DNA of 64,000 bases from Gammaproteobacteria bacterium (GCA_965209035.1 OZ242372.1:1568001-1632000), one strand, 5' to 3'. Shown: positions 3,675-17,837, numbered from the stretch's first letter. Program-made: numbers and translations. The notes: a model not told the origin generated them from the sequence alone.

Positions 3675-4714
3675 GTGCGGATTATCAGGCCGTCGGCTGG
3701 AACAAGTTCAAGATCGGTTACGACCTTTTCATATTCTGTGCGGTCTTGTTGTACTTGGGCGGATTCATCATTGTCAGCATTGCCTTTTACAGATTTCCCC
3801 AAGAAATTAGCCCTCTCATCATCCTCATTCGCGCGTTTGGCACCTGTGCGTTTATTTTGTTACACTTTATTTTGCTCATAGGTCCTCTGGCAAGGGTTTC
3901 GTCACTTTTTAAGCCGTTACTTTACAATCGCCGCCATTTGGGCGTGACGATGTTCTTGATCGCCACCGCGCATATTTTCTTTGTTATGGTTTGGTATCAC
4001 GGCTATGGTGTTTTAATCCCACTCTTGTCCGTGTTTGTGAGTAATCCGAATTACTCGGATCTTGCCCGGTTCCCGTTTGAAATTTTTGGAGTGGCCGCTT
4101 ATGTGATCATTCTCGCGATGGCACTGACCAGTCACGACTTCTGGTTAAAGTTGTTCGGCGCGCCAGTCTGGAAGCTGCTGCATATGGGGGTTTATGTCGC
4201 TTATTTTCTCCTCGTATCCCATGTGCTGTTTGGTTATGTGCGAGCGGAGTCCTCCGTGGCGATGTTTTACACAGTGGCGGGCGGTGCCGGTCTGCTGGTT
4301 TTTGTCCATCTGCTGGCGGGAATAAAAGAAGCGATGGCGGACAAGCGGACGCGCGGCGAAGGAGAATGGACGCCTCTTTGTCGTGCCGATGCGTTGGAGA
4401 ATGAAAGGGGAATGGGGTTCACGCTGAAAAAAGGAGACAAGGTGGCGGTTTTTCGCTACGATAACCGTCGTATTTGTGCCGTTGCCAACGCCTGTGCGCA
4501 TCAAAACGGTCCTCTTTGCGAGGGCAGAATTATTGGCGGTAAAATTGTCTGTCCTTGGCATGGTTACGAATATGAGCCGGCAACCGGTTGCTCGCCGCCG
4601 CCTTTTACGGAACGCATCCCCGTTTACGAGGTGCGTATCCGGAAAGGGACAGTGGAAGTGCGCGACGAGCCGCTTCCTTTGGGGAGTAAAGTCAAGCCGG
4701 CGGTGATGCGTTAG
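3671..4714 (+). CDS. Ferric reductase-like (MsrQ-type) transmembrane domain fused to a Rieske 2Fe-2S domain
   Basis: YNRRHLG, ALTSHD, WKLLHMGVY membrane heme motifs; C-terminal CAHQNGPL...CPWHG Rieske ligands. Confidence 0.88.
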   Translation: MSADYQAVGWNKFKIGYDLFIFCAVLLYLGGFIIVSIAFYRFPQEISPLIILIRAFGTCAFILLHFILLIGPLARVSSLFKPLLYNRRHLGVTMFLIATAHIFFVMVWYHGYGVLIPLLSVFVSNPNYSDLARFPFEIFGVAAYVIILAMALTSHDFWLKLFGAPVWKLLHMGVYVAYFLLVSHVLFGYVRAESSVAMFYTVAGGAGLLVFVHLLAGIKEAMADKRTRGEGEWTPLCRADALENERGMGFTLKKGDKVAVFRYDNRRICAVANACAHQNGPLCEGRIIGGKIVCPWHGYEYEPATGCSPPPFTERIPVYEVRIRKGTVEVRDEPLPLGSKVKPAVMR

Positions 4715-4743
4715 AAAAAGAGCGAATACCGATTAACGAACAG

Positions 4744-5658
4744 ATGAATCCAAAAGACGCTATTTCTAAAGGGCCTCCAAAGCCTCCAAAGCCTCCAAAG
4801 CCTCTAAAGCCTCCAAAGCCTCCAAAGGCAAAAAGGGAGCCGCAGCCGGCCAATCGACAGCAGCCGGTGCCGCGCAAGGACGCGCATGCGGATTTCTTTA
4901 TCGGTTACAAAAAAGTGCCGACCGCTTCCCGGCGCTTTTTCCTTCTTTCCATGCCGTTACTCCTTGCGGGAGGGACAGGTCTGGGGGTGCTATTGGCGCG
5001 TTCTCAGTTAAAACCGGATGCGACCAATTGGGGAAAAGAAGTGATTACTTTGGACGGGATGCTCGTCGCAGACCCCTATCCGCATCTGCTGGTTGCCAAC
5101 CCGAGTGCCGCCGCCGGTTATGATGCGGTGTTTTTGGTAAAAAGAGGGAAATACGGAGCCCAGGCACTGGCAACCGGGAAGACAGGTACTTGGGTGCGAA
5201 CCTCCGGCAAACTGATCAGTCGGCATGACACAGCGTCAAATTATATGTTGGAAGCAACAGACTTGCAACCTCTTGCGCAGTCTGCGAGAACCCCGCCGGG
5301 TGAGGCATCTTTGTTTTCCGACAAGACCTCGGATCTGGGTTTTCATACGCTGCGCGGCCGCATTATGGATAGCAAATGCTATTTCGGGGTGATGAAACCC
5401 GCCGAAGGAATTACGCACAAGGCATGCGCCGCGTTATGTGTTCGCGGGGGCATACCGCCGTTTTTCGTCCCATACGGCGAAGCGGCCGACAGGGTCATTG
5501 TGGTCGCGAATGAACAGGGCATTGCCGATTTTGAGTTTCTGTTGCCGCATATCTTGGATCCTGTGGAACTGCGCGGCAAGTTGGTGGCGGTGAACAATCA
5601 TTATCAGTTGCATGTTGCCGCCGCAGATATTCGGAGTTTGGTTTCTCTTAACTGCTAA
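4744..5658 (+). CDS. Hypothetical membrane-anchored protein with Cys/His motif
   Basis: One TM helix; DSKCYFGVMKP...HKACAALCVRGGIPP; N-terminal PPK repeat from a 9-bp tandem repeat. Confidence 0.75.
   Translation: MNPKDAISKGPPKPPKPPKPLKPPKPPKAKREPQPANRQQPVPRKDAHADFFIGYKKVPTASRRFFLLSMPLLLAGGTGLGVLLARSQLKPDATNWGKEVITLDGMLVADPYPHLLVANPSAAAGYDAVFLVKRGKYGAQALATGKTGTWVRTSGKLISRHDTASNYMLEATDLQPLAQSARTPPGEASLFSDKTSDLGFHTLRGRIMDSKCYFGVMKPAEGITHKACAALCVRGGIPPFFVPYGEAADRVIVVANEQGIADFEFLLPHILDPVELRGKLVAVNNHYQLHVAAADIRSLVSLNC
4773..4826 (+). repeat. 9-bp tandem repeat GCCTCCAAA x6 (PPK repeat)
   Basis: Directly visible; one unit has a C>T variant. Confidence 0.9.
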
Positions 5659-5941
5659 ATAACTTAATTAGCCGATCAGCCAAACCGCAAACCCTCTTTA
5701 TTAATTTTGCCCGGACGGGGCGGGTGAGGGTGAGGGACTGACCCGAGCGATGCTTTATTTAAGTGATATAAGTGATTTGGCGATTAACAACCGGCTGAGA
5801 ACAGGCGGTTAATGTTAACCCGGAAGCAAATCACGGACAAACATAAAATACGGAGAAACATCACCCATTACGCTGCCCTTAAAACAAAACAATGCTTTTA
5901 ATTTTGTGGGCGGGTGAGGGTGATTGGTGGGGCGATGTAGG

Positions 5942-6292
5942 CTACTTGTCAGCAATTTTGCGATAGTAGGATCTTATTTCTCCTACGAGCAAGGCGATCG
6001 CAATGAACAGCACCAAATCCTTAATAGACATCACTTGGGCGTCTTTTAACCAATGCATTCCTTTCGGTGCCAATTCATGGAAGATCCAAACACCTGCGGT
6101 TATGCCGTAAAGCACTGCCGCAAAGGATATCCCCAAGACAAAGATATAATGAAAACCCTCTTTTTTCTTGTCGGCTCTTTTTGCCTCCTTATCTTGGTGT
6201 TCCGGGTAGAGTAGCTTGCCGCCTCCATTTTTTGTGTCTTCTGCTTTCTTTTCAAGCAGGTTTAGTTTTTTATTTTGATTTTTGTTAGGCAT
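5942..6292 (-). CDS. Two-TM hypothetical protein, candidate toxin paired with Panacea antitoxin
   Basis: Overlaps the 3' end of the Panacea gene by 8 bp; charged N-terminus and two hydrophobic helices. Confidence 0.6.
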   Translation of the reverse strand: MPNKNQNKKLNLLEKKAEDTKNGGGKLLYPEHQDKEAKRADKKKEGFHYIFVLGISFAAVLYGITAGVWIFHELAPKGMHWLKDAQVMSIKDLVLFIAIALLVGEIRSYYRKIADK

Positions 6293-6848
6293 TATTTTCT
6301 TGTTCGGCTATCTCCTCTAACCTTTTTTCGATGACATCATCAAAATGCTTTTTAATTTTCTTTGTTGGTATCACAGTTCCTCTTTCCCTCCTTTTATAAG
6401 TTTCCGCCCATGGCGTTCCGGGTTGATGTGTCAAAGACACAACCTCGCCAGCACTCTTACGCTTATAAGTATTCCAAACGACGGACAGTACTCTGCCTTC
6501 CGTCGTTTCCTCATTGACAGAACGGTATCTCAACTCTTCAACTTTTTCATCCCGGGATATTTCCAGACTGGGAACAAACTTCGTGATGGGTTTCCGCCCC
6601 CAATGTTGGAAGGCATGGTATACGGAAGGAATGACAGGACCAAACTTCCATGCCTGTAGGTCTTCCGCAATTAGTTTTTTGCCATCCATGATTGACAAAG
6701 CCCAACCATAACCAAAATAACACATCTTGACCAACCGGAGCAAATCAATATCAATATTTTGATCAGCCGCTTTCTTGATAAAGAAGTTTGCAATATGCTC
6801 CGATTTGTATGCGGAGATATGCTCTTTTATTTTTTGTTTCGTTTTCAT
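6285..6848 (-). CDS. Panacea-domain (DUF4065/SocA/GepA-like) antitoxin
   Basis: IANFFI, LRLVKMCYFGYGW, QAWKFGPVIPSVY, LTHQPGTPW motifs. Confidence 0.88.
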   Translation of the reverse strand: MKTKQKIKEHISAYKSEHIANFFIKKAADQNIDIDLLRLVKMCYFGYGWALSIMDGKKLIAEDLQAWKFGPVIPSVYHAFQHWGRKPITKFVPSLEISRDEKVEELRYRSVNEETTEGRVLSVVWNTYKRKSAGEVVSLTHQPGTPWAETYKRRERGTVIPTKKIKKHFDDVIEKRLEEIAEQENNA

Positions 6849-7238
6849 AATTAATATATACCGGAGTTAAATTTAATAATAATTCAAGCAGCACCAAGAT
6901 TATACAGCGATATATTCCATTTATTCCTTTTTGCATTATCTCACCCGGTTTTGGAGGTTTTGGATTTTTTTATTTGTGTCCGTATGACCTTCAAACCGCC
7001 CCCAAACCAAACCCCGAACCGCCGAGAGTTGTTCCGTAAATATTAAGACATTAGAAGCCGTGGGGCTGAAGGCTGGGGAGTTGAGAATGAGTATTTGGAA
7101 TGAATAGAACAACTTGAAACTATCCCCCGCATCTTATCAAGCATCTTTTTGAGTGCGGTCAATTTTGCCCCGCCCTGGCCGCTTTGCCTGTTGTCCGGCC
7201 GCCGGCAACCTTGTTTTCTATTCTGTTACCTTACCTGC

Positions 7239-9537
7239 TTATCTGCCTTGCGCCGAGAGGCCGCCCGGCAGGCAATTCAGGACCGGGTATTGGCTGCTTG
7301 TGCCAAGATTCCAAACGCTGAAGAATCCATTCGGCAGGTCATCCGCGTCCATCACTTCCATCACTTCGCCAGTGTCCCGATTACACCAGATGCCACCCCA
7401 GTCGGCATAGATGCCTGTGAAAGTAATCGGCGATTGCAATTCCGTCGTGGTCTTACCCTTACCCAGATTAAGAGCACTCATAGACAGCATGGTGGTGTCC
7501 GTATCCCAGTAAGACGCATTGACGGTGGTGGCATCATCGGCGACGCCCACCAATCCACCCGGACCACCCAGCGAAGCATCGACAGTTGAAACCCGCCCGC
7601 CGGCAGTATAAGAATAGCGAATCGTCGCACTACTTCCATCCCCAACCAGTCCGCTAATCGCAGGTTCCCGAGTCCCGGCAACACTTCCGTTGCGCACATA
7701 AACATAGTAAATATGAGAATCCAGCCCATACCCCACCAGTCCGCCAATATTAATGTTCCCGGCAACATCCGTGCCGGACACACCGGCATAGCGAATAGTA
7801 GCGGACTGACCATTTCCAATCAGTCCGCCAATACGACCGTTCCCGGTAACATCCGCGTCGGACACACTGGCATAGCGAATAGTAGCAGACCGACCACTTC
7901 CAACCAGCCCGCCAATAGCGTTACCGTCACTGCCACCATAGTCCGCGAAAACAGTGATACCGGATACACGGGCATAGCGAATATTAGCAGACAGACCATC
8001 TCCAATCAGTCCGCCGGCAGCGCCTCCGCCTGAGCCGGAGGAAGCACTTCCGCCGGATACATTCGCATGGCGAATGTTGGCAGACGGACCCTGCCCAACC
8101 AGCCCGCCAACACTACCGAGCCCGGCAACATCTGTGCCGGACACTTCGGTATAGCGAATAGTGGCGGACTGACCATTTCCAATCAGTCCGCCCACTGCGT
8201 TAGCATTACCATCTATCACACTGCCACGAACCGACAGATTTTCATAACTGGCATTCCTGCCATAGCCTGCCAGTGTGCCCACATCACTACCGGCATTGAA
8301 TTTGATAGTCGCATCCCGGAGATGCAGATTTTGAAGACTGCCGTTGAACGCACCAAATAAGCCCAGCCCAAAGTTCCTACCGGACACAGAGATAAACAGA
8401 TCGGCAAGAGTATGATCCCGACCATCAAACACAGCCGCATACGACGTATAACTCCGGCACTTGACATTAAACTGGTCTTCGTTATTTATGTCAGTACAGA
8501 AGCCGATCGGTTGCCAGCCGCTGCCACTCGTCCAAAGAGCTTGATTGCCGCTGCTACCGCTACCCGTGGCATAGGATTCCCCATCGCTAAAATTGAGCGA
8601 GCGCGTCAGTTCGTAGCCCCGGCAGCCGTCCGGGACCGGACAGCCCTCGGCACCCACGGCGGTAATATCGGAAATATTCCCATCATCCTCCCCATCGCCA
8701 TTGAGATCATCGCGCAGTAGGGCTAATTGATCCAAATTGTGAATCTCGATCAAGCCGTTATTATCATCGTCCACATCCGCCGTATCAAGCGTGCCGTCAT
8801 TGTCATCGTCCAAATCCTCATCGCTATCCTGACAGCCGTCGCCGTCATGGTCCGTAGACGGATTGGAGGTCCAACCCGTATCGCCGCGCGGACAGTCGTC
8901 GGCAAGATCATTCAGGCCATCATTGTCATCGTCATCATCACAGGCATCGCCTAGCGGATCCGTATCGTTATTGAGTTGTCGGGGATTAGCAATGCCGCGG
9001 CAGTTGTCCACCGCATTCGGAACTCCGTCCCTGTCAGTGTCTCCCGTCGGGTTGCCACCTCCGGGTCCGGTCCTTGCCGGGTTCGCCGCCGTAACCGCAG
9101 CTGCGCGGCCACCCGTATAGAGCACCACAATCGTTAGATTGTAGGCGGCATCATGCATCAGCCCCTCAAGAGTGATGCTCACGCGTGCACCGGCCAAGGT
9201 GCTCACATCCGGTGCCGTCAAATTTTGCATGCCGGCGTCGCCCGCATCTTGCGTATTCTCCCAAGTAATATTGAAGCCGGCAATATTGGGTTGATTCGGA
9301 TTCTTCCAAGAGACGACAAGACTCGTGTTGGTATCTCCCGCCACAAACTCAATCTCGGCAACACCGAAATTATCGGGGGGGGGGGGGACTACCGCCGCCT
9401 CCGCTTCCGCCGCCGCAAGCGGCGAGCAAGACGGCCGACAAGCCGATGGTTAATAATAGGTTGCTGCCGCGGTGTGCCGTTTGGCCGGCTGCGACGATGC
9501 CGTTGCTACGGATAGCGTGTATTGCGAATATGCTCAT
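7239..9537 (-). pseudogene. FN3/TSP3/GLUG-repeat surface lipoprotein, copy 1; out of frame at a C13 tract (phase OFF)
   Basis: ATG at 9537 with LLAAC lipobox matching copy 2; G13 at 9375-9387 shifts the frame; the downstream 701-aa frame is intact. Confidence 0.85.
9375..9387 (-). repeat. Poly-C tract (13 nt), out of frame
   Basis: Counted G13 on the + strand. Confidence 0.9.
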
Positions 9538-9603
9538 AATGAATGATTGATTGTTTTTATTAAAGATAAAATCATTTTTGTCTTTTTTTACCCGCTTATC
9601 TGC

Positions 9604-11895
9604 TTATCTGCCTTGCGCCGAGAGGCCGCCCGGCAGGCAATTCAGAACGGGGTATTGGTTTGCCGTGCCCAGATCCCAAACACGAACGAAGGGGGCACCT
9701 GGCCCGGTAGCGGTAGCATCTTCCATCTCGGCGTCCGTCCTTGGATCGCACCAGAAGTTGCCCCAGTCGGCATAGATATTGGCCGAACCATCCGCGGCGG
9801 CGGTAGTAAAATCGGTCGGCGATTGCAACTCGGTCGTGGTCTTACCCCTACCCAGATTACGGGCACTCGCAGACAGCATGGTGGTGTCCGTATCCCAGTA
9901 AGTGGCATTGACGGTGGTGGCATCATTGGCAAGGCCCACCAATCCACCCAGAGCACCCAAAGTACCGGATGCTGAAACCCGCCCGCCGGCGGCATAAGAA
10001 TAGCGAATCGTCGCACCCTTCCCCGCCCCAACCAGTCCGCCAACTGCATCATCCAGATTTGCGGTAACACTTCCGTTGTGCACATAAACATAGTAAATAT
10101 CAGAATTCTGCCCGTTCCCGATCAGTCCGCCAGTACTTTTACTCCCGGCAACATCCGCATCGGACACACCGGCATAGCGAATATTAGCATGCACTCCGTC
10201 CCCAATCAATCCGCCAGTACTAGCACCCCCGGCAACATCCGCATCGGACACACTGGCATAGCGAATATTAGAACGCACTCCGTCCCCAATCAGTCCGCCA
10301 ACAGAACTACCGGCAAGGTTACTAGCGTCCGCGAAAACAGTGATGCCGGCTACACGGGCATAGCGAATATTAGCAGACTGCCCAAACCCAACCAGTCCGC
10401 CGAGATTACCTCCGCTTGCGCCGCTGGAAGCACTGCCGCCGGATACATTCGCATGGCGAATTTTAGCAGACTGACCATGCCCAACCAGCCCGCCAACACT
10501 ATTGACCCCGGCAACATCTGTGCCGGATACTTGGGTATAGCGAATAGTAGCAGACTGACCATCTCCAATCAGTCCGCCCACTCCGCTAGCAGCAGGACTA
10601 CTTATCACACTGCCACTAACCGACAAATTTTCATAATGGGCATTCCTGCCATAGCCTACCAGTGCGCCCACATCATCGGCACCGAAATTGATAGTCGCAT
10701 TCCGGAGATGCAGATTCTGAAGTCCGCCGTTGAATGCACCAAATAAGCCCAGCCCGTAGATCGGACCAAACGCAGAGATGAACAGATCGGCAAGAGTATG
10801 ATCCCGACCATCAAACACAGCTGCATACCCGGTGCAAACATTATTGTCAGTACAGGAGCCGATCGGTTGCCAGCCGCTGCCACTCGTCCAAAGAGCTTGA
10901 TTGCCGCTGCTACCGCTACCCGTGGCATAGGATTCCCCATCGCTAAAATTGAGCGAGCGCATCAGTTCGTAGCCCCGGCAGCCGTCCGGCAGCGGGCAGC
11001 CCTCGGAGCCCACGGCGGTAATATCGGAAATATTCCCATCATCCTCCCCATCGCCATTGAGATCATCGCGCAGTAGGGCTAATTGATCCAAATTGTGAAT
11101 CTCGATCAAGCCGTTATCATTGTCATCCACATCCGCCGTATCAAGCGTGCCGTCATTGTCATCGTCCAAATCCTCATCACTATCCTGACAGCCGTCGCCG
11201 TCATGGTCCGTAGACGGATTGGAGGTCCAACCCGTATCGCCGCGCGGACAGTCGTCGGCAAGATCATTCAGGCCATCATTATCATCGTCATCATCACAGG
11301 CATCGCCTAGCGGATCCATATCGCTATTGAGTTGCCGGGGATTAACAATGCCGCGGCAGTTGTCTTCCGCATTCGGAACTCCGTCCCTGTCAGTGTCTCC
11401 CGTCGGGTTGCCACCCCCGGGTCCGGTCCTTGCCGGGTTCGCCGCCGTAACCGCAGCTGCGCGGCCACCCGTATAGAGCACCACAATCGTTAGATTGTAG
11501 GCGGCATCATGCATCAGCCCCTCAAGAGTGATGCTCACGCGTGCACCGGCCAAGGTGCTCACATCCGGTGCCGTCAAATTTTGCATGCCGGCGTCGCCCG
11601 CATCTTGCGTATTCTCCCAAGTAATATTGAAGCCGGCAATATTGGGTTGATTCGGATTCTTCCAAGAGACGACAAGACTCGTGTTGGTATCTCCCGCCAC
11701 AAACTCAATCTCAGCAACACCGAAATTATCGGGGGGGGGGGGGGGACTACCGCCGCCTCCGCTTCCGCCGCCGCAAGCGGCGAGCAAGACGGCCGACAAG
11801 CCGATGGTTAATAATAGGATGCTGCCGCGGTGTGCCGTTTGGCCGGCTGCGACGATGCCGTTGCTACGGATAGCGTGTATTGCGAATATGCTCAT
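9604..11895 (-). CDS. FN3/TSP3/GLUG-repeat surface lipoprotein, copy 2; in frame (C15, phase ON)
   Basis: Lipobox LLAAC, FN3-like LVVSWKNP...YNLTIVV, Ca-binding DxDxDG/DNC repeats, multiple GGLVG/GGLIG repeats. Confidence 0.9.
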   Translation of the reverse strand: MSIFAIHAIRSNGIVAAGQTAHRGSILLLTIGLSAVLLAACGGGSGGGGSPPPPPDNFGVAEIEFVAGDTNTSLVVSWKNPNQPNIAGFNITWENTQDAGDAGMQNLTAPDVSTLAGARVSITLEGLMHDAAYNLTIVVLYTGGRAAAVTAANPARTGPGGGNPTGDTDRDGVPNAEDNCRGIVNPRQLNSDMDPLGDACDDDDDNDGLNDLADDCPRGDTGWTSNPSTDHDGDGCQDSDEDLDDDNDGTLDTADVDDNDNGLIEIHNLDQLALLRDDLNGDGEDDGNISDITAVGSEGCPLPDGCRGYELMRSLNFSDGESYATGSGSSGNQALWTSGSGWQPIGSCTDNNVCTGYAAVFDGRDHTLADLFISAFGPIYGLGLFGAFNGGLQNLHLRNATINFGADDVGALVGYGRNAHYENLSVSGSVISSPAASGVGGLIGDGQSATIRYTQVSGTDVAGVNSVGGLVGHGQSAKIRHANVSGGSASSGASGGNLGGLVGFGQSANIRYARVAGITVFADASNLAGSSVGGLIGDGVRSNIRYASVSDADVAGGASTGGLIGDGVHANIRYAGVSDADVAGSKSTGGLIGNGQNSDIYYVYVHNGSVTANLDDAVGGLVGAGKGATIRYSYAAGGRVSASGTLGALGGLVGLANDATTVNATYWDTDTTMLSASARNLGRGKTTTELQSPTDFTTAAADGSANIYADWGNFWCDPRTDAEMEDATATGPGAPFVRVWDLGTANQYPVLNCLPGGLSAQGR
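11731..11745 (-). repeat. Poly-C tract (15 nt), in frame (Pro5)
   Basis: Counted G15 on the + strand. Confidence 0.9.
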
Positions 11896-11961
11896 AATGA
11901 ATGATTGATTGTTTTTATTAAAGATAAAATCATTTTTGTCTTTTTTTACCCGCTTATCTGC

Positions 11962-14377
11962 TTACCTGCCTTGCGCCGAGAGGCCGCCCGGCAGGCAATT
12001 CAGAACGGGGTATTGGTTTGCCGTGCCTAGATCCCAGACACGAACGAAGGGGGCACCCGGCCCGGTAGCGGTAGCATCTTCCCTCTCAGCGTCCGTCCTT
12101 GGATCGCACCAGAAGTTGCCCCAGTCGGCATAGATATTGGCCGAACCATCCGCGGCGGCGGTAGTAAAATCGGTTGGCGATTGCAATTCCATTGTGGTCT
12201 TACCCTCACCCAGATTAAGGGCACTCGTAGACAGCATGGTGGTGTCCGTATCCCAGTAAGTGGCATTGACGGTGATCCTATCGGCAGCACCCACCAACCC
12301 ACCCGGACCACCTAAGCTATTGGAGGTTGAAACCTCTCCGCCGGCGGCATAAGAATAGCGAATCGTCGCCTTACCTCCATCCCCAACCAGTCCGCCGATC
12401 GCATCATCCCGAGTTCCGGCAACACTTCCGTTGTGCACATAAACATAGCGAATATTAGCAGACTCACCAAACCCAACCAGTCCGCCAACATTGGAATTCC
12501 CGGAAACATCCGCGCCGGACACACCGGCATAGCGAATAGTAGCATTCTCTCCTCTCCCAATCAATCCGCCAACACGCTCATTAACTCCGGCAACATCCAC
12601 GCCGGACACACCGGCATAGCGAATATTAGCAGACGGGCCATTCCCAACCAGTCCGCCAACATTGGAATTCCCGGAAACATCCGCGCCGGACACACCGGCA
12701 TAGCGAATAGTAGCATTCTCTCCTCTCCCAACCAGTCCGCCAACATTAACACTCCCGGAACTCCCAGTGACATCCGTGCCGGACACACCGGCATAGCGAA
12801 TATTAGCATGATCCCCAAGCCCAATCAGTCCGCCGGCAAGTCCGCCGGCAACCCTTCCGCCGGATACATTCGCATGGCGAATTTTAGCAGACGGACCATT
12901 CCCAACCAGTCCGCCAACAAAGCCAACCAGTTCGCTAACCTGTCCGGCCCCGGCAACATCTGTGCCGGACACACGGGCATAGCGAATAGTGGCGGACTGA
13001 CCATCTCCAATCAGTCCGCCCACTCTGTCAGCATTAGGACTACTTATCACACTGCCACGAACCGACAGATTTTCATAATGGGCATTTCTGCCATAGCCTA
13101 CCAGTGCACCCACCCCATCGAAACCGAAATTAATAGTCGCATTCCGGAGATGCAGATTCTGAAGACTGCCGTTGAATGCGCCAAATAAGCCCAGCCCGAG
13201 TATCCTGATCGTAGAGGGCCCAGAGATGAACAGATCGGCAAGAGTATGGTCCCGACCATCAAACACAGCCGCATACGACACATAACTCCGGCATCTGACC
13301 ACAAACAGGTTTACGACATCTACGGCAGTACAGGAGCCGATCGGCTGCCAGCCGTTGCCACTGCGATTTGTCCAAACAGCTTGATTGTCGCTGCTACCGC
13401 TACCCGTGGCATAGGAATCCGCATCGCTGAAATTGAGCGAGCGCATCAGTTCGTAGCCCCGGCAGCCGTCCGGGACCGGACAGCCCTCGGCACCCACGGC
13501 GGTAACATCGGAAATATTCCCATCATCCTCCCCATCGCCATTGAGATCATCGCGCAGCCGCGCCAAGTCATCCAATGTGTAGATTTCTATCAAGCCGTTA
13601 TCATTGTCATCCACATCCGCCGTATCAAGCGTGCCGTCATTGTCATCGTCCAAATCCTCATCGCTATCCTGACAGCCGTCGCCGTCATGGTCCGTAGACG
13701 GATTGGAGGTCCAACCCGTATCGCCGCGCGGACAGTCGTCGGCAAGATCATTCAGGCCATCATTATCATCGTCATCATCACAGGCATCGCCTAGCGGATC
13801 CGTATCGTTATTGAGTTGCCGGGGATTAACAATGCCGCGGCAGTTGTCCGCCGCATTCGGAACTCCGTCCCTGTCAGTGTCTCCCGTCGGATTGCTACCC
13901 CCGGGTCCGGTCCTTGCCGGGTCCGCCGCCGTAACCGATGCCGCGCGGCCACCCGTATAGAGCACCACAATCGTTAGATTGTAGGTGGCATCATGCATCA
14001 GCCCCTCAAGAGTGATGCTCACGCGTGCACCGGCCAAGGTGCTCACATCCGGTGCTGTCAAATTTTGCATGCCGGCGTCGTCCGCATCTTGCGTATTCTC
14101 CCAAGTAATATTGAAGCCGGCAATATTGGGTTGATTCGGATTCTTCCAAGAGACGACAAGACTCGTGTTGGTATCTCCCGCCACAAACTCAATCTCAGCA
14201 ACACCGAAATTATCGGGGGGGGGGGGGGGGACTACCGCCGCCTCCGCCACCGCCGCAAGCGGCGAGCAAGACGGCCGACAAGCCGATGGTTAATAATAGG
14301 ATGCTGCCGCGGTGTGCCGTTCGGCCGGCTGCGACGATGCCGTTGCTACGGATAGCGTGTATTGCGAATATGCTCAT
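11962..14377 (-). pseudogene. FN3/TSP3/GLUG-repeat surface lipoprotein, copy 3; out of frame at a C16 tract (phase OFF)
   Basis: ATG at 14377 with the same signal peptide; G16 at 14215-14230; remainder intact; contains an internal 171-bp duplication. Confidence 0.85.
14215..14230 (-). repeat. Poly-C tract (16 nt), out of frame
   Basis: Counted G16 on the + strand. Confidence 0.9.
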
Positions 14378-16533
14378 AATGAATAATTGATTGTTTTATT
14401 AAAAGATAAAATCAGCATAGTTAATATTTTACCATATTTCGGCGAGACTAATGCAAAGACCAGGCAAAGACTATGCAAAGACTAGGCAAACATCCGTTCC
14501 GCTTGTCGGTTATTGTTTACTGCCGTTGTTGTGCCGGGCTGAGGGGAAGGCAGTTCAAGGCGGGGTATTGGTTGGCCGCACCCAGATCCCACAGACGAAT
14601 GAAAGGGGCACCGGGGCCGCCGGCATCTGTGGTTTCCCGGATCTCGAGACTAACCGGATCACACCAGAAGTTGCCCCAGAGTGCGTAGATGTTGTCCGTC
14701 CCGGTGAAGTTAGTCGGGGTCTGCAGCTCCGCAGTTGTCTTCGCCGCCGTTCCTGTCTTCCCCACATGAACACCTCCCGACACTAGCGACTGCCTTGTGG
14801 TTTGCGTGTCCCAATAGGATGCGATGAATAATGTTGTCGTTATGAAAAGGGCGGAATTACCGATCAAGCCGCCGGTAAATGCATTGCCTGAGATCTCGCC
14901 ACTGGCCACATAGGAATAACGACCTTCAGACATGCTCCCGATGCCGGACAATCCACCCACCGATCGAAGAAAAACAGAAATGCGACGACCTCCAAGACCA
15001 CCAACACTGCCACGGACCACATAGGAATGACGAACATCGGCACCTATCCCATTACCGAGCACCCCGCCAATAAACGTACCACCATGCGCATCAAGGGCTG
15101 TAATATTCGCATCGGACACGGACACGGCACGAATCGTCGCACCCTCTCCATCGCCGACCAGACCGCCGAGACGATTGTCACCGGCAACAGTCACATCGGA
15201 CACAGCCGCGGCATGAATCGTCGCACGCCGTCCATCGCCGACCAGACCGCCGACACGATCATCATCGGCACTGGCATGGTCATCAGCGGCACGCACAGTC
15301 GCATCGGACACGAAGGCGGCCCGAAGCGTCGCATCCCGTCCATCGCCGACCAGGCCGCCGATCTGATCATCACCGGCAACAGCCGCACCGGACACGGATA
15401 CCGCACGCATCATAGTATCCGCACCGGACGCATCGCCAACCAGACCACCGACAGAATCCGCGGACGCACTCATGATCACTCCCCCGATAACCGACAGATT
15501 CTCATAACGAGCATTGCGGCCATAGCCCGCCAGCAGACCCACATCATTGGCGCCGCCACTGACATTCGCATTTCGGAGATGCAGATTTTGGATAGTGCCA
15601 TTGAACGCACCAAACAAGCCGATGCCATTGACGGTATGATTGACAGAAATGAACAGATCGGCAATGCGATAACCGCCGCCGTCAAACACAGCCGTCCAAG
15701 GAGTGCAAGTATTCCGGGCGGAGCAGGAGCCGATCGGCTGCCAGCCGCTGCCGCTGCGATTTGTCCAAGCAGCCTTATTAGCACTGCCCGGCAAATAGGA
15801 AGCCGCATCGCTGAAATTCAGCGAGCGGGTTAACTCATAGCCTGCACAGCCGTCCGGGAGCGGGCAGCCCGCGGCACCCACAGAGGTAATCTCGTCAATA
15901 TTCTCATCATCATCTCCATCGCCGTCCAGATCATCGCGCAGTAAGGCTAACTGGTCCAAGCTGTGAATCTCTATCAAGCCGTCACCGTCATAGTCCAAAT
16001 CATCCGCATTCGCCACACCATCACCATCAATATCGTCCGGATCCGTTCCGGTGATGCCTTCAACCGAAGTTGAAGCCACCGAAGTGCCATCCGCATAACG
16101 CACTGTAACTGTGATGCGATAGGTGGCAGCATAGTTTAGATTCGTAATCTTATATGTATTATCCGAAGCACCCGCCACAACATTCGCCAGGGAATCAGTA
16201 AGTTCCATTTCTCCTCTATCGGTCGGATCGGCATCATCGCCAACATTGATCCAATTAATATTGAACCCGCTGATACTCTCCCGGTTTGGATTGGTCCAAC
16301 TCACGATAATATTATTCCCACTGACCATGGTTCGGATACCGGAAACAGCCAGAGGATCGGGAGGAGGAACAATAGGGTTATCGATATCATCCGGATCCCG
16401 CCCGGTCGTGACTTGAACCGAACCCAAAACTACGGGATCTTGACCCTCATAACGCACCGTCACTGTGATTTTGTAAGTAGCCGCATAGGTTAGATTCGTA
16501 ATCTTATATGTATTATCCGAAGCACCCGCCGCA

Positions 16534-17837
16534 TGCATGATCTCATAAAGGTTCTGGACTCTGAGTTTGGTATTGTGCGTCCTCAGATCAAGCAGCCGGA
16601 TGTTCTGTCGGACGGGTCGAAAATAGATCCGGCAACGGGTCTCCGGTATGTGGAGCTAGATGAATGAAACGGGCAAGAAAGATGGATAGCTGTTTTGCTC
16701 TCACCGCCGCAGACAGCGGAGGCTTGTTGTTGATAAAACTGTCTAGGTGTATCCGCTGGCAAGACGGTACGGTGTGCGAGAGCGGCTGCACCGCGGAGGT
16801 GATTTGAAATGAGAGGAACACGTTTACGCTACATTGGTTATCGCGTGCGCGGTTTCAATAAAATGGTGGTTTTAGCAAACAAATATTCAAACATGTCTAA
16901 AACCACCAAAATCAAACTGGACACCTTAGCGTTCGCGCGCAAACATGGTGTCGCGGCGGCGCTGGATCATGCCGGGATCAGTCGTGCTACATTCTACGAG
17001 TGGCAGCGGCGTTTCCGTGAAGGCGGGGTCGATGAACTGGCGAACAACTATGGGTATCAGCCCAAGCGGTCCAACACCTGGCCACCGGCACTGATTACCA
17101 AGATCCGATCTTGGCGACAACAGCGTCCGAACATCGGTGCCGGTAAACTGGTCTGCTTGTTACCCGAATGGTGTCAGCAGCGCGGGCTGCCGCTGCCCAG
17201 CCAATCAACGCTCTCTCGCATCATTGCCGATGACCCGGATAAGATGCGGTGCAAACCATCGCGGTCCGTGCCGAAACGCCTGCGGCAAGGTGCTCCGCGC
17301 GAGCGCAAGGACATCCGCTTTGTTGCGGGCCGGAGAGGTGAATGTGTTGCCTTTGATACGCTCGTCCGCATCGTCGATGGCCGGCGCTTTTATTGGCATG
17401 TCGGCATTGATCTATTTTCCCGCTTCTCACTGGTCAGTGTCGACACCTCGGCTGCTTCGGCCAGTTCCGCCCGGCTCTTTACCGCCATGCAAAACATACT
17501 CGGCACTCGGATCGAAAAAGTCCTCACCGATAATGGCAGTGAGTTCGCCAAAGACTTTCACCGGGTCGTGACCGCAAACGGCAGCACCCACTGGTATACT
17601 TATCCAAGGAAACCGCAAATGAATGCACACTGCGAACGGTTTAATCGCACTCTCTGGGAAGAGTTCGGTTGTCATATGCGGCATCTCTTGGTTAAGGATA
17701 TGCCGGCATTCAACGCCAAACTCATCGAGTGGTTGGCTTGGTATAATCTGGAACGTCCCCATTATGCTCTCAAACAACTCTCGCCAATCCAGTTTTTGCA
17801 AAAACAAAAAAAGTCCAGAAATGGGTGGGATCATACA
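16534..17837 (+). mobile_element. IS481-family insertion sequence, copy 1 (1304 bp), 5-bp TSD CCGCA
   Basis: Imperfect IRs TGCATGATCTCATAAAGGTTCTGGACT / TGTATGATCCCACCCATTTCTGGACT; CCGCA at 16529-16533 and 17838-17842. Confidence 0.92.

Follow-up and report, generated by a model that had tools for sequence, protein, structure and literature searches.

Poly-C tracts in a tandem array of FN3-TSP3-GLUG lipoprotein genes: candidate phase-variable loci in Gammaproteobacteria bacterium

An array of three tandem lipoprotein genes was analysed in a stretch of 64,000 nucleotides (nt) from Gammaproteobacteria bacterium (GCA_965209035.1 OZ242372.1:1568001-1632000; the whole of this stretch is referred to as the window). 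The genes lie at 7239..14377 and each has a long poly-C tract behind the codon for the lipobox Cys. Each is probably a contingency locus, in a lipoprotein family with FN3, TSP3 and GLUG domains that would undergo translational phase variation by slipped-strand mispairing. In the assembly, one of the three tracts joins the signal peptide to the body of the protein; in the other two copies the body is intact and out of frame. Similar tracts are present at the 5′ ends of other members of the family, both elsewhere in this genome and in a sister genus.

The three array copies and their tracts

The pattern C10 has 17 overlapping matches in the window, every one of them inside three minus-strand runs; 0.24 are expected by chance, and 17 or more were seen in none of 100 shuffles. 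An original prediction for this DNA had given these runs as tracts of 13, 15 and 16 C residues, which the pattern match confirms, and had placed them a few codons after the lipobox Cys. They do lie behind it, although the actual distance is nine to ten codons, at codon 50-51 out of about 760. The context is common to all three copies: after the ATG comes a signal peptide of 41 residues (MSIFAIHAIRSNG...LSAVLLAAC) with L-A-A-C as its end, then eight to nine residues of Gly/Ser linker, the tract, and GATAATTTC, with GATAATTTCGG as the post-tract residues. The lipobox, read from the sequence as residues 38-41 behind a hydrophobic stretch, was assigned with the pattern [LVI][ASTVI][GAS]C.

Translation bears out the prediction that the signal peptide is fused to the body only in the C15 copy. 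In copy 2, the frame of the signal peptide is continuous with that of the body over 763 amino acids (aa), without a stop. In copies 1 and 3, the signal-peptide frame ends at a TAA two codons past the tract, giving open reading frames (ORFs) of 55 aa, and the bodies, open over 711 and 750 codons, are out of frame with their own signal peptides.

7239..9374, minus strand: copy 1 body, 711 codons and stop, fully open (translation; Pfam)
9375..9387, minus strand: copy 1 poly-C tract, 13 nt, 3k+1, OFF
9370..9537, minus strand: copy 1 signal-peptide mini-ORF, 55 aa, ending PPPPR and then TAA
9604..11895, minus strand: copy 2, in frame (ON), 763-aa prolipoprotein (stop-free translation; Pfam; profile against the PDB)
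11731..11745, minus strand: copy 2 poly-C tract, 15 nt, 3k, in frame, encoding PPPPP
11962..14214, minus strand: copy 3 body, 750 codons and stop, fully open (translation; Pfam)
14215..14230, minus strand: copy 3 poly-C tract, 16 nt, 3k+1, OFF
14210..14377, minus strand: copy 3 signal-peptide mini-ORF, 55 aa, with TAA past the tract

The order of elements in copy 2 is signal peptide (residues 1-40), lipobox Cys41 (codon 11775-11773), GGGSGGGGS linker, five Pro from the tract, FN3, TSP3 repeats, GLUG beta-helix repeats, and a Cys-containing C-terminal domain. In Pfam, fn3 (PF00041, cut-off 25 bits) is matched by all three copies (29.6, 29.5 and 30.9 bits for copies 1, 2 and 3). TSP_3 (PF02412, cut-off 25 bits) is over the cut-off in copy 1 (26.7) and under it in copies 2 and 3 (22.5 and 22.2), and Glug (PF07581, cut-off 20.5 bits) is over it in copies 2 and 3 (30.4 and 47.3) and under it in copy 1 (18.0). 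Only these three domains were found in the Pfam search of the copies, which revealed no enzyme domain, M26 protease included. In addition, a single sequence searched with phmmer against the PDB matched COMP at 7e-14. A profile of 42 family members matched the type-3 calcium-binding repeats of COMP/thrombospondin-2 (PDB 3FBY, 1YO8; 1.5e-31, in five stretches), the N-terminal GLUG domain of the Streptococcus pneumoniae IgA1 protease (PDB 6XJA/6XJB/7JGJ; 1.2e-11), and fibronectin FN3. These domain statements rest on sequence profiles, with atlas features for the GLUG clusters only. The genome encodes the lipoprotein processing enzymes Lgt (240 bits) and LspA (128 bits). The product is predicted to be a lipid-anchored, adhesin-like protein, and we infer that these lipoproteins would be exposed on the outer surface and serve as adhesins.

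The original prediction described the three genes as near-identical. This holds for about the first 1.1 kb, where DNA identity per 100 columns is 95-100%, but not overall, as identity is 55-90% in the repeat region and the other two copies have 81% and 84% aa identity to copy 2. The 3′ end is mosaic, copies 2 and 3 being 97-98% alike and copy 1 47-70%. Outside the tract, all indel gaps in the pairwise comparisons between copies are multiples of three (5/5, 12/12, and 9/9; 26 in total), and the tract is the sole site at which the copies differ by 1-3 nt out of register. The ratio of non-synonymous to synonymous substitution (dN/dS) is 0.31-0.40 in the N-terminal 300 codons. In the GLUG repeats it is 0.76-0.89, with dS of 0.21-0.27, yet no stop is present. 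The OFF copies were predicted to have no other lesion, which is borne out by the 711 and 750 open codons and by the indels, and on this evidence their bodies appear to be maintained under constraint.

No difference separates the three copies within 17 nt to either side of the tract. Between copies 1 and 2, the spacer and the first 100 columns are 100% identical, yet the tracts are C13 and C15, and in the printed sequence of about 100 nt on each side of the tract two substitutions were counted by eye. Judged from these comparisons, tract length changes faster than the flanking sequence.

The proposed mechanism is that a hypermutable poly-C run, within the linker that connects the lipid-anchor Cys to the first folded domain, would gain or lose C residues through slipped-strand mispairing during replication. 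With 3k C residues (12, 15, or 18), the signal peptide would be fused to the body through a proline tether of 4-6 residues and the full lipoprotein would be made. With 3k+1, translation would stop at the conserved TAA two codons past the tract, leaving a 55-residue pre-lipopeptide (predicted to yield a lipopeptide of 14-15 residues), and with 3k+2 about 51 codons would be translated in the wrong frame. In the state captured by the assembly, copy 2 would be ON and copies 1 and 3 OFF. Each copy would switch independently, so that the cells of one clone would show different combinations of variants, differing mainly in their GLUG repeats. The same device would operate across a family of 89 ORFs, at least 11 of which have G/C tracts, and in a restriction-modification gene.

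The wider family in this genome and in its relatives

Using copy 2 as the query, phmmer matched 89 ORFs (stop-to-stop, at least 150 aa) in the 2.24-Mb, two-contig genome. Together they span 253,266 nt, a genome share of 11%; a lipobox is present in most of them, and many are arranged in tandem. The genome contains 19 G/C runs of at least 10 nt, of which 11 are within the 5′ zones of family ORFs. These zones make up 2.9% of the genome, in which 0.56 G/C runs would be expected (binomial P ~9e-13, a value that overstates the enrichment because the paralogues are not independent, with about eight independent family loci). The same zones show no enrichment of A/T runs of 8 nt or more (2 of 228, 6.7 expected).

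The genome has nine post-lipobox tracts of 11 nt or longer, as poly-C (Pro) or poly-G (Gly), four of them in frame and five out of frame.

In frame: G11 at C1:106098
In frame: G11 at C1:108775
In frame: G11 at C1:1317901
In frame: C15 of the window
Out of frame: C25 at C1:48532
Out of frame: G12 at C1:1185645
Out of frame: C18 at C1:1473369
Out of frame: C13 of the window
Out of frame: C16 of the window

All five genes with out-of-frame tracts have long open bodies; in the three outside the window, these are open for 689-728 codons past the tract, or 708 codons stop to stop. Four in frame to five out of frame is near the one-third expected of free-running switches, not the nine out of nine of a plain coding linker, and therefore supports switching. 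Three more family genes have the tract farther upstream, perhaps in an N-terminal extension or leader (C1:578593-578601, C1:1027386-1027401, and C1:1364639-1364653). In these, the poly-C is upstream of the hydrophobic core of the signal peptide and is followed in two of the three by a CA repeat; a direct repeat of about 25-32 nt is present on both sides of the tract, and the candidate extension starts MPNT...

The codons of the Gly linkers are bimodal. Among the 27 family ORFs with at least five Gly after the Cys, the longest G run is 2 in 23 and 5 in one, and in these 24 linkers GGG accounts for 2 of 159 Gly codons; the remaining three ORFs carry G8 or G11. That tract-free linkers have almost no GGG points to selection in the stable genes against homopolymers arising by accident.

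Outside the family, a C25 run with a CA repeat (L138:4082-4106, equal to C1:1841581-1841605) splits a fused restriction-modification gene and is out of frame in the assembly. Mrr nuclease and ResIII helicase domains are upstream of it (L138 2533-4128) and Helicase_C, N6 methylase, and Eco57I domains downstream (4148-7126); these were obtained from the full ORFs, the 63-aa fragment upstream of the tract having no match in Pfam. Restriction-modification genes are a class that is often controlled by repeat tracts, and this one is a candidate phase-variable defence or epigenetic switch. Two C15 runs are intergenic (C1:805931-805945 and C1:1851264-1851278) and may be promoter-spacing tracts; one, followed by A9, is between the genes for a 2-hydroxyacid dehydrogenase and a ribulose-phosphate epimerase, and the other is near a short-chain dehydrogenase gene.

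A search of 5.8 billion database proteins gave 335 matches to the family, solely from this genome and metagenome contigs, with one informative source name among them ('thrombospondin type 3 repeat-containing protein [Gammaproteobacteria bacterium]'). When 30 related genomes were searched, all four from the same taxonomic family were found to hold dozens of homologues with 36-46% identity. Outside the taxonomic family, weak matches were present in only four of the 30 genomes, one or two in each.

The sister genus (G001) has 44 distinct G/C tracts that are 11 nt or longer, C38 being the longest. Directly 5′ of copy 2 homologues are 27 of these, and five further tracts, all poly-G, are directly after the lipobox Cys (LTAC-A-G15-18-SSSGG), which places 32 of the 44 at the 5′ ends of homologues. 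Sets of paralogues with flanks that are identical or a few bases apart, as compared over the printed 40-90 nt upstream and 45-50 nt downstream of the tract, have tracts of C26/C11, C17/C20, and C20/C26/C19. In 12 of the 27 family-associated cases (L130-L169), an ATG is directly before the tract, or in one instance one codon before it, with an alternative ATG or GTG 14 nt behind the tract. Two G001 tracts are in ORFs that are putatively DNA methyltransferase-like by their motifs. Likewise, motifs recognized by eye in the ORFs with other long tracts in relatives (L146 and L169 of G001, L101 of G002, and L114 of G003) are DNA methyltransferase-like, DEAH helicase-like, and glycosyltransferase-like.

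G/C runs of 9 nt or longer are absent from 169 kb of sequence covering 31 distant homologue loci of other metagenomes, in short-read contigs that may break at homopolymers; homologues without a tract indicate that the protein does not need one. The exact flank-tract-flank pattern has no match in metagenome contigs. A related-locus search of genome contigs returned 79 loci, nearly all of them generic matches to TSP3 repeats from archaea and Myxococcota. Residues 161-753 were matched only by L035, from a Gammaproteobacteria bacterium metagenome-assembled genome (MAG), with 30% identity.

The remaining features of the array are two spacers and a fourth family gene.

9538..9603, minus strand: 66-nt spacer from the copy 2 stop to the copy 1 ATG, 100% identical to the copy 3/copy 2 spacer
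11896..11961, minus strand: 66-nt spacer from the copy 3 stop to the copy 2 ATG
14517..16538, minus strand: fourth family member, adjoining the array upstream, with no tract (fn3 39.4 bits; 482 bits to copy 2; translation)

No terminator and no consensus promoter were found when both 66-nt spacers were scanned on the minus strand, and the copies may therefore be co-transcribed. The fourth gene is considered to be 5′-truncated because it is without a signal peptide or lipobox and its frame opens within an FN3 domain. It may be a remnant, or possibly a silent recombination donor for its mosaic neighbours. Upstream of copy 3, TGGTAAAAT at 14426-14434 (minus strand) resembles an extended -10 element by eye, with no call made by the scan tool; it is present too upstream of the G12 family gene, at C1:1185604, and the matching place upstream of copies 1 and 2 reads GGGTAAAAA. 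Just downstream of the array is a 187-aa ORF (window 6285-6848, minus strand) with a SocA/Panacea antitoxin domain (PF13274, 57.7 bits).

Evidence for and against reversible switching

The slipped-strand switching put forward in the original prediction is supported by the enrichment of tracts, their recurrence in the sister genus, the length differences between tracts with identical flanks, the indels in multiples of three, and the bimodal Gly codons. Reversible switching in vivo, and the rate at which it would occur, are what we infer from these sequence patterns. The tandem array had been seen as the unit of switching. Three tandem copies with tracts are indeed present, but they are just three of at least 11 tract genes in a family of 89 ORFs, most of them tract-free, and the switching unit is therefore the genome-wide family rather than the locus.

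In addition to the non-independence of the paralogues, several points weigh against phase variation. The read data came from two samples, one represented by the contigs of three runs and the other by a single raw-read run (X4). On copy 2, the run contigs have C16, C13, and C16, which are exactly the lengths of copies 3 and 1. As the flanks of the tracts are identical and depth is about twice that of unique sequence, a tract length in a contig is not assignable to a copy, and these lengths were rejected as evidence of tract variation within a population; at most, they show that lengths of 13 and 16 occur in the runs, possibly the assembly's own data. X4 contributed 122 reads, most of them at 90-95% likeness, and depth at the tracts was close to nil. 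All sequencing platforms are prone to error in homopolymers of 13-16 nt. The ON/OFF call of each copy rests on the homopolymer lengths in the assembly, where individual calls may be wrong; the prediction that only one copy is ON agrees with the frames of the assembly and depends on the same lengths. About 78 of the 89 family ORFs have no tract, and of eight tracts inspected in genus g3, none is in a family gene. Both MutS and MutL are present in the genome, and loss of mismatch repair was therefore rejected as a cause of raised slippage; Neisseria and Haemophilus also have both. With regard to surface exposure, a search for SLAM (PF04575) gave no match, which is uninformative as the control was positive in 0 of 14 genomes.

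The doubt over tract lengths is the basis for an alternative in which the tracts do exist but are without exception in frame, encoding a plain proline or glycine tether in constitutive genes. In its favour, the tract of copy 2 is in frame, a lipobox could plausibly be followed by a poly-Pro tether, miscalls do happen at 13-16 nt on all platforms, and the contigs do not assign lengths to copies. Five of the nine post-lipobox tracts are, however, out of frame in the assembly, and lengths of 13 and 16 occur in the run contigs as well, although these may be the assembly's own data. The frame-break signature is present at 7 of 89 A/T homopolymers of at least 8 nt and at 151 of 1891 of 6-7 nt, in a crude control that has about 8% background from overlapping open frames and serves only to compare the two length classes. 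The equal rates indicate that the assembly is not generally homopolymer-noisy. Sequencing error is exceeded by the 15-nt difference between identically flanked G001 paralogues. Further, stable paralogues encode the same Gly linker almost without GGG, and the distant homologues manage without a tract. Even if all were in frame, runs of this length would still be hypermutable. Constitutive genes with miscalled tracts are accordingly regarded as a quite improbable explanation.

It is very improbable indeed that copies 1 and 3 are young, decaying pseudogenes with a frameshift at a mutational hotspot and no reversible switching. Both are out of frame, and the truncated fourth gene demonstrates that gene decay does happen in the array. 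Decay would not, however, account for a single lesion, at the tract, in both copies, with the 26 other indel gaps all in multiples of three, nor for the absence of stops despite dS of up to 0.27 and an N-terminal dN/dS of 0.31-0.40. The same pattern of open bodies is repeated at the three other out-of-frame family genes in the genome.

Graded expression is of a different kind, as it can coexist with phase variation and is a live complement to it, although on its own it is rather unlikely. RNA polymerase slippage or ribosomal frameshifting on the C run would restore the frame in a fraction of products, so that OFF would not be complete and the level of product would depend on tract length. Transcriptional slippage at long homopolymers is known in bacteria, for example at the poly-A tracts of insect endosymbionts; tracts of 13-38 nt are long enough for it, and leaky expression would account for the intact OFF bodies. 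On the other hand, the conserved TAA behind the tract in the +1 frame is a sharp stop, and the split of four in-frame to five out-of-frame tracts fits switching at the DNA level without rescue.

Comparison with known systems and significance

The device is a classic contingency locus. This case is set apart by the protein family, the uncultured gammaproteobacterial lineage, the scale, and the coexistence of switchable and codon-stabilized paralogues. Campylobacter jejuni and Helicobacter pylori, with their small genomes, carry G/C or short-repeat tracts by the dozen in surface genes and in those for restriction-modification, and in the hgp genes of Haemophilus influenzae the repeat is directly after the signal peptide, within a paralogue family. 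The protein families in these species are other than FN3-TSP3-GLUG. Campylobacter and Helicobacter are not known to have MutS/MutL-type mismatch repair, whereas the genome here has both proteins.

The CTCTT repeats of the neisserial opa genes sit in the signal-peptide region. Here the tract is behind the lipobox Cys, and the OFF product would therefore be a short lipopeptide, unlike in Neisseria. The neisserial proteins are also unrelated, Opa being a beta-barrel and PilC a pilus protein, and the family described here is far larger, with 89 ORFs and 11% of the genome. Two sources describe neisserial switches at the translational level in pilC (G11-15) and a 'repetitive large surface lipoprotein' (G7/8), the fetA promoter tract (C10-14), and 11 opa paralogues; the likeness is that tract length differs between strains and that several paralogues switch independently (PMC5320596, PMC11868660).

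The Vlp, Vsa, and Vpma proteins of Mycoplasma are likewise multigene families of surface lipoproteins, with combinatorial expression through high-frequency switching, as outlined in PMC11868660. Vpma and Vsa use site-specific recombination, in contrast to the translational switch here, and the proteins are unrelated and from wall-less organisms rather than from a Gram-negative gammaproteobacterium. Vlp switches through a promoter poly-A. Neither Pfam nor PDB sequence searches found homology to Opa or to Vlp-Vsa-Vpma, and the likeness is one of mechanism only.

In the surface-protein gene inlA, a 5′ homopolymer leads to a truncated product and mutates about 1000 times faster than point mutation, according to Orsi et al. 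(2010; PMC2831843). The tracts in that study are poly-A/T of up to about 7-8 nt, whereas those here are G/C tracts of 11-25 nt, and up to 38 nt in the sister genus, concentrated in one family. The body of the protein is homologous, at the level of profiles, to the IgA1 protease and to thrombospondin/COMP; neither has the order FN3-TSP3-GLUG behind a lipobox, and no M26 domain was found here. No literature describing the family, linking GLUG proteins with phase variation, or dealing with this lineage was found in a search that did not cover subscription journals, which agrees with the claim of the original prediction that no description of an FN3-TSP3-GLUG family is known.

For annotation, the gene calls for copies 1 and 3 are of 701 and 762 aa, begin at an internal GTG, and have lost the signal peptide. 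When OFF copies in assembled genomes are called in this way, automated annotation and counts of pseudogenes can go astray.

Almost all known examples of the mechanism are from a few cultured pathogens; here a lineage without cultured members would use it very extensively, in a protein family that has no name. It is about an even chance that more than a tenth of the genome of about 2.2 Mb is a homopolymer-switched lipoprotein repertoire, with at least 11 tract genes here and at least 32 in the sister genus, tracts of up to 38 nt, and non-switching paralogues that avoid GGG. The switch would then have arisen anew in three places, one at the start codon or ahead of it, one within an N-terminal extension, and one following the lipobox Cys. 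If true, few repeat-controlled surface repertoires known in Gram-negative bacteria would be as large relative to genome size, and a single gene family would offer a natural example of local mutability being both favoured and opposed by selection. Switchable and stable paralogues can be compared within that family, through GGG-free Gly linkers and those with G8-G11 and through tract positions across genera, making the evolution of local hypermutability testable in a single genome.

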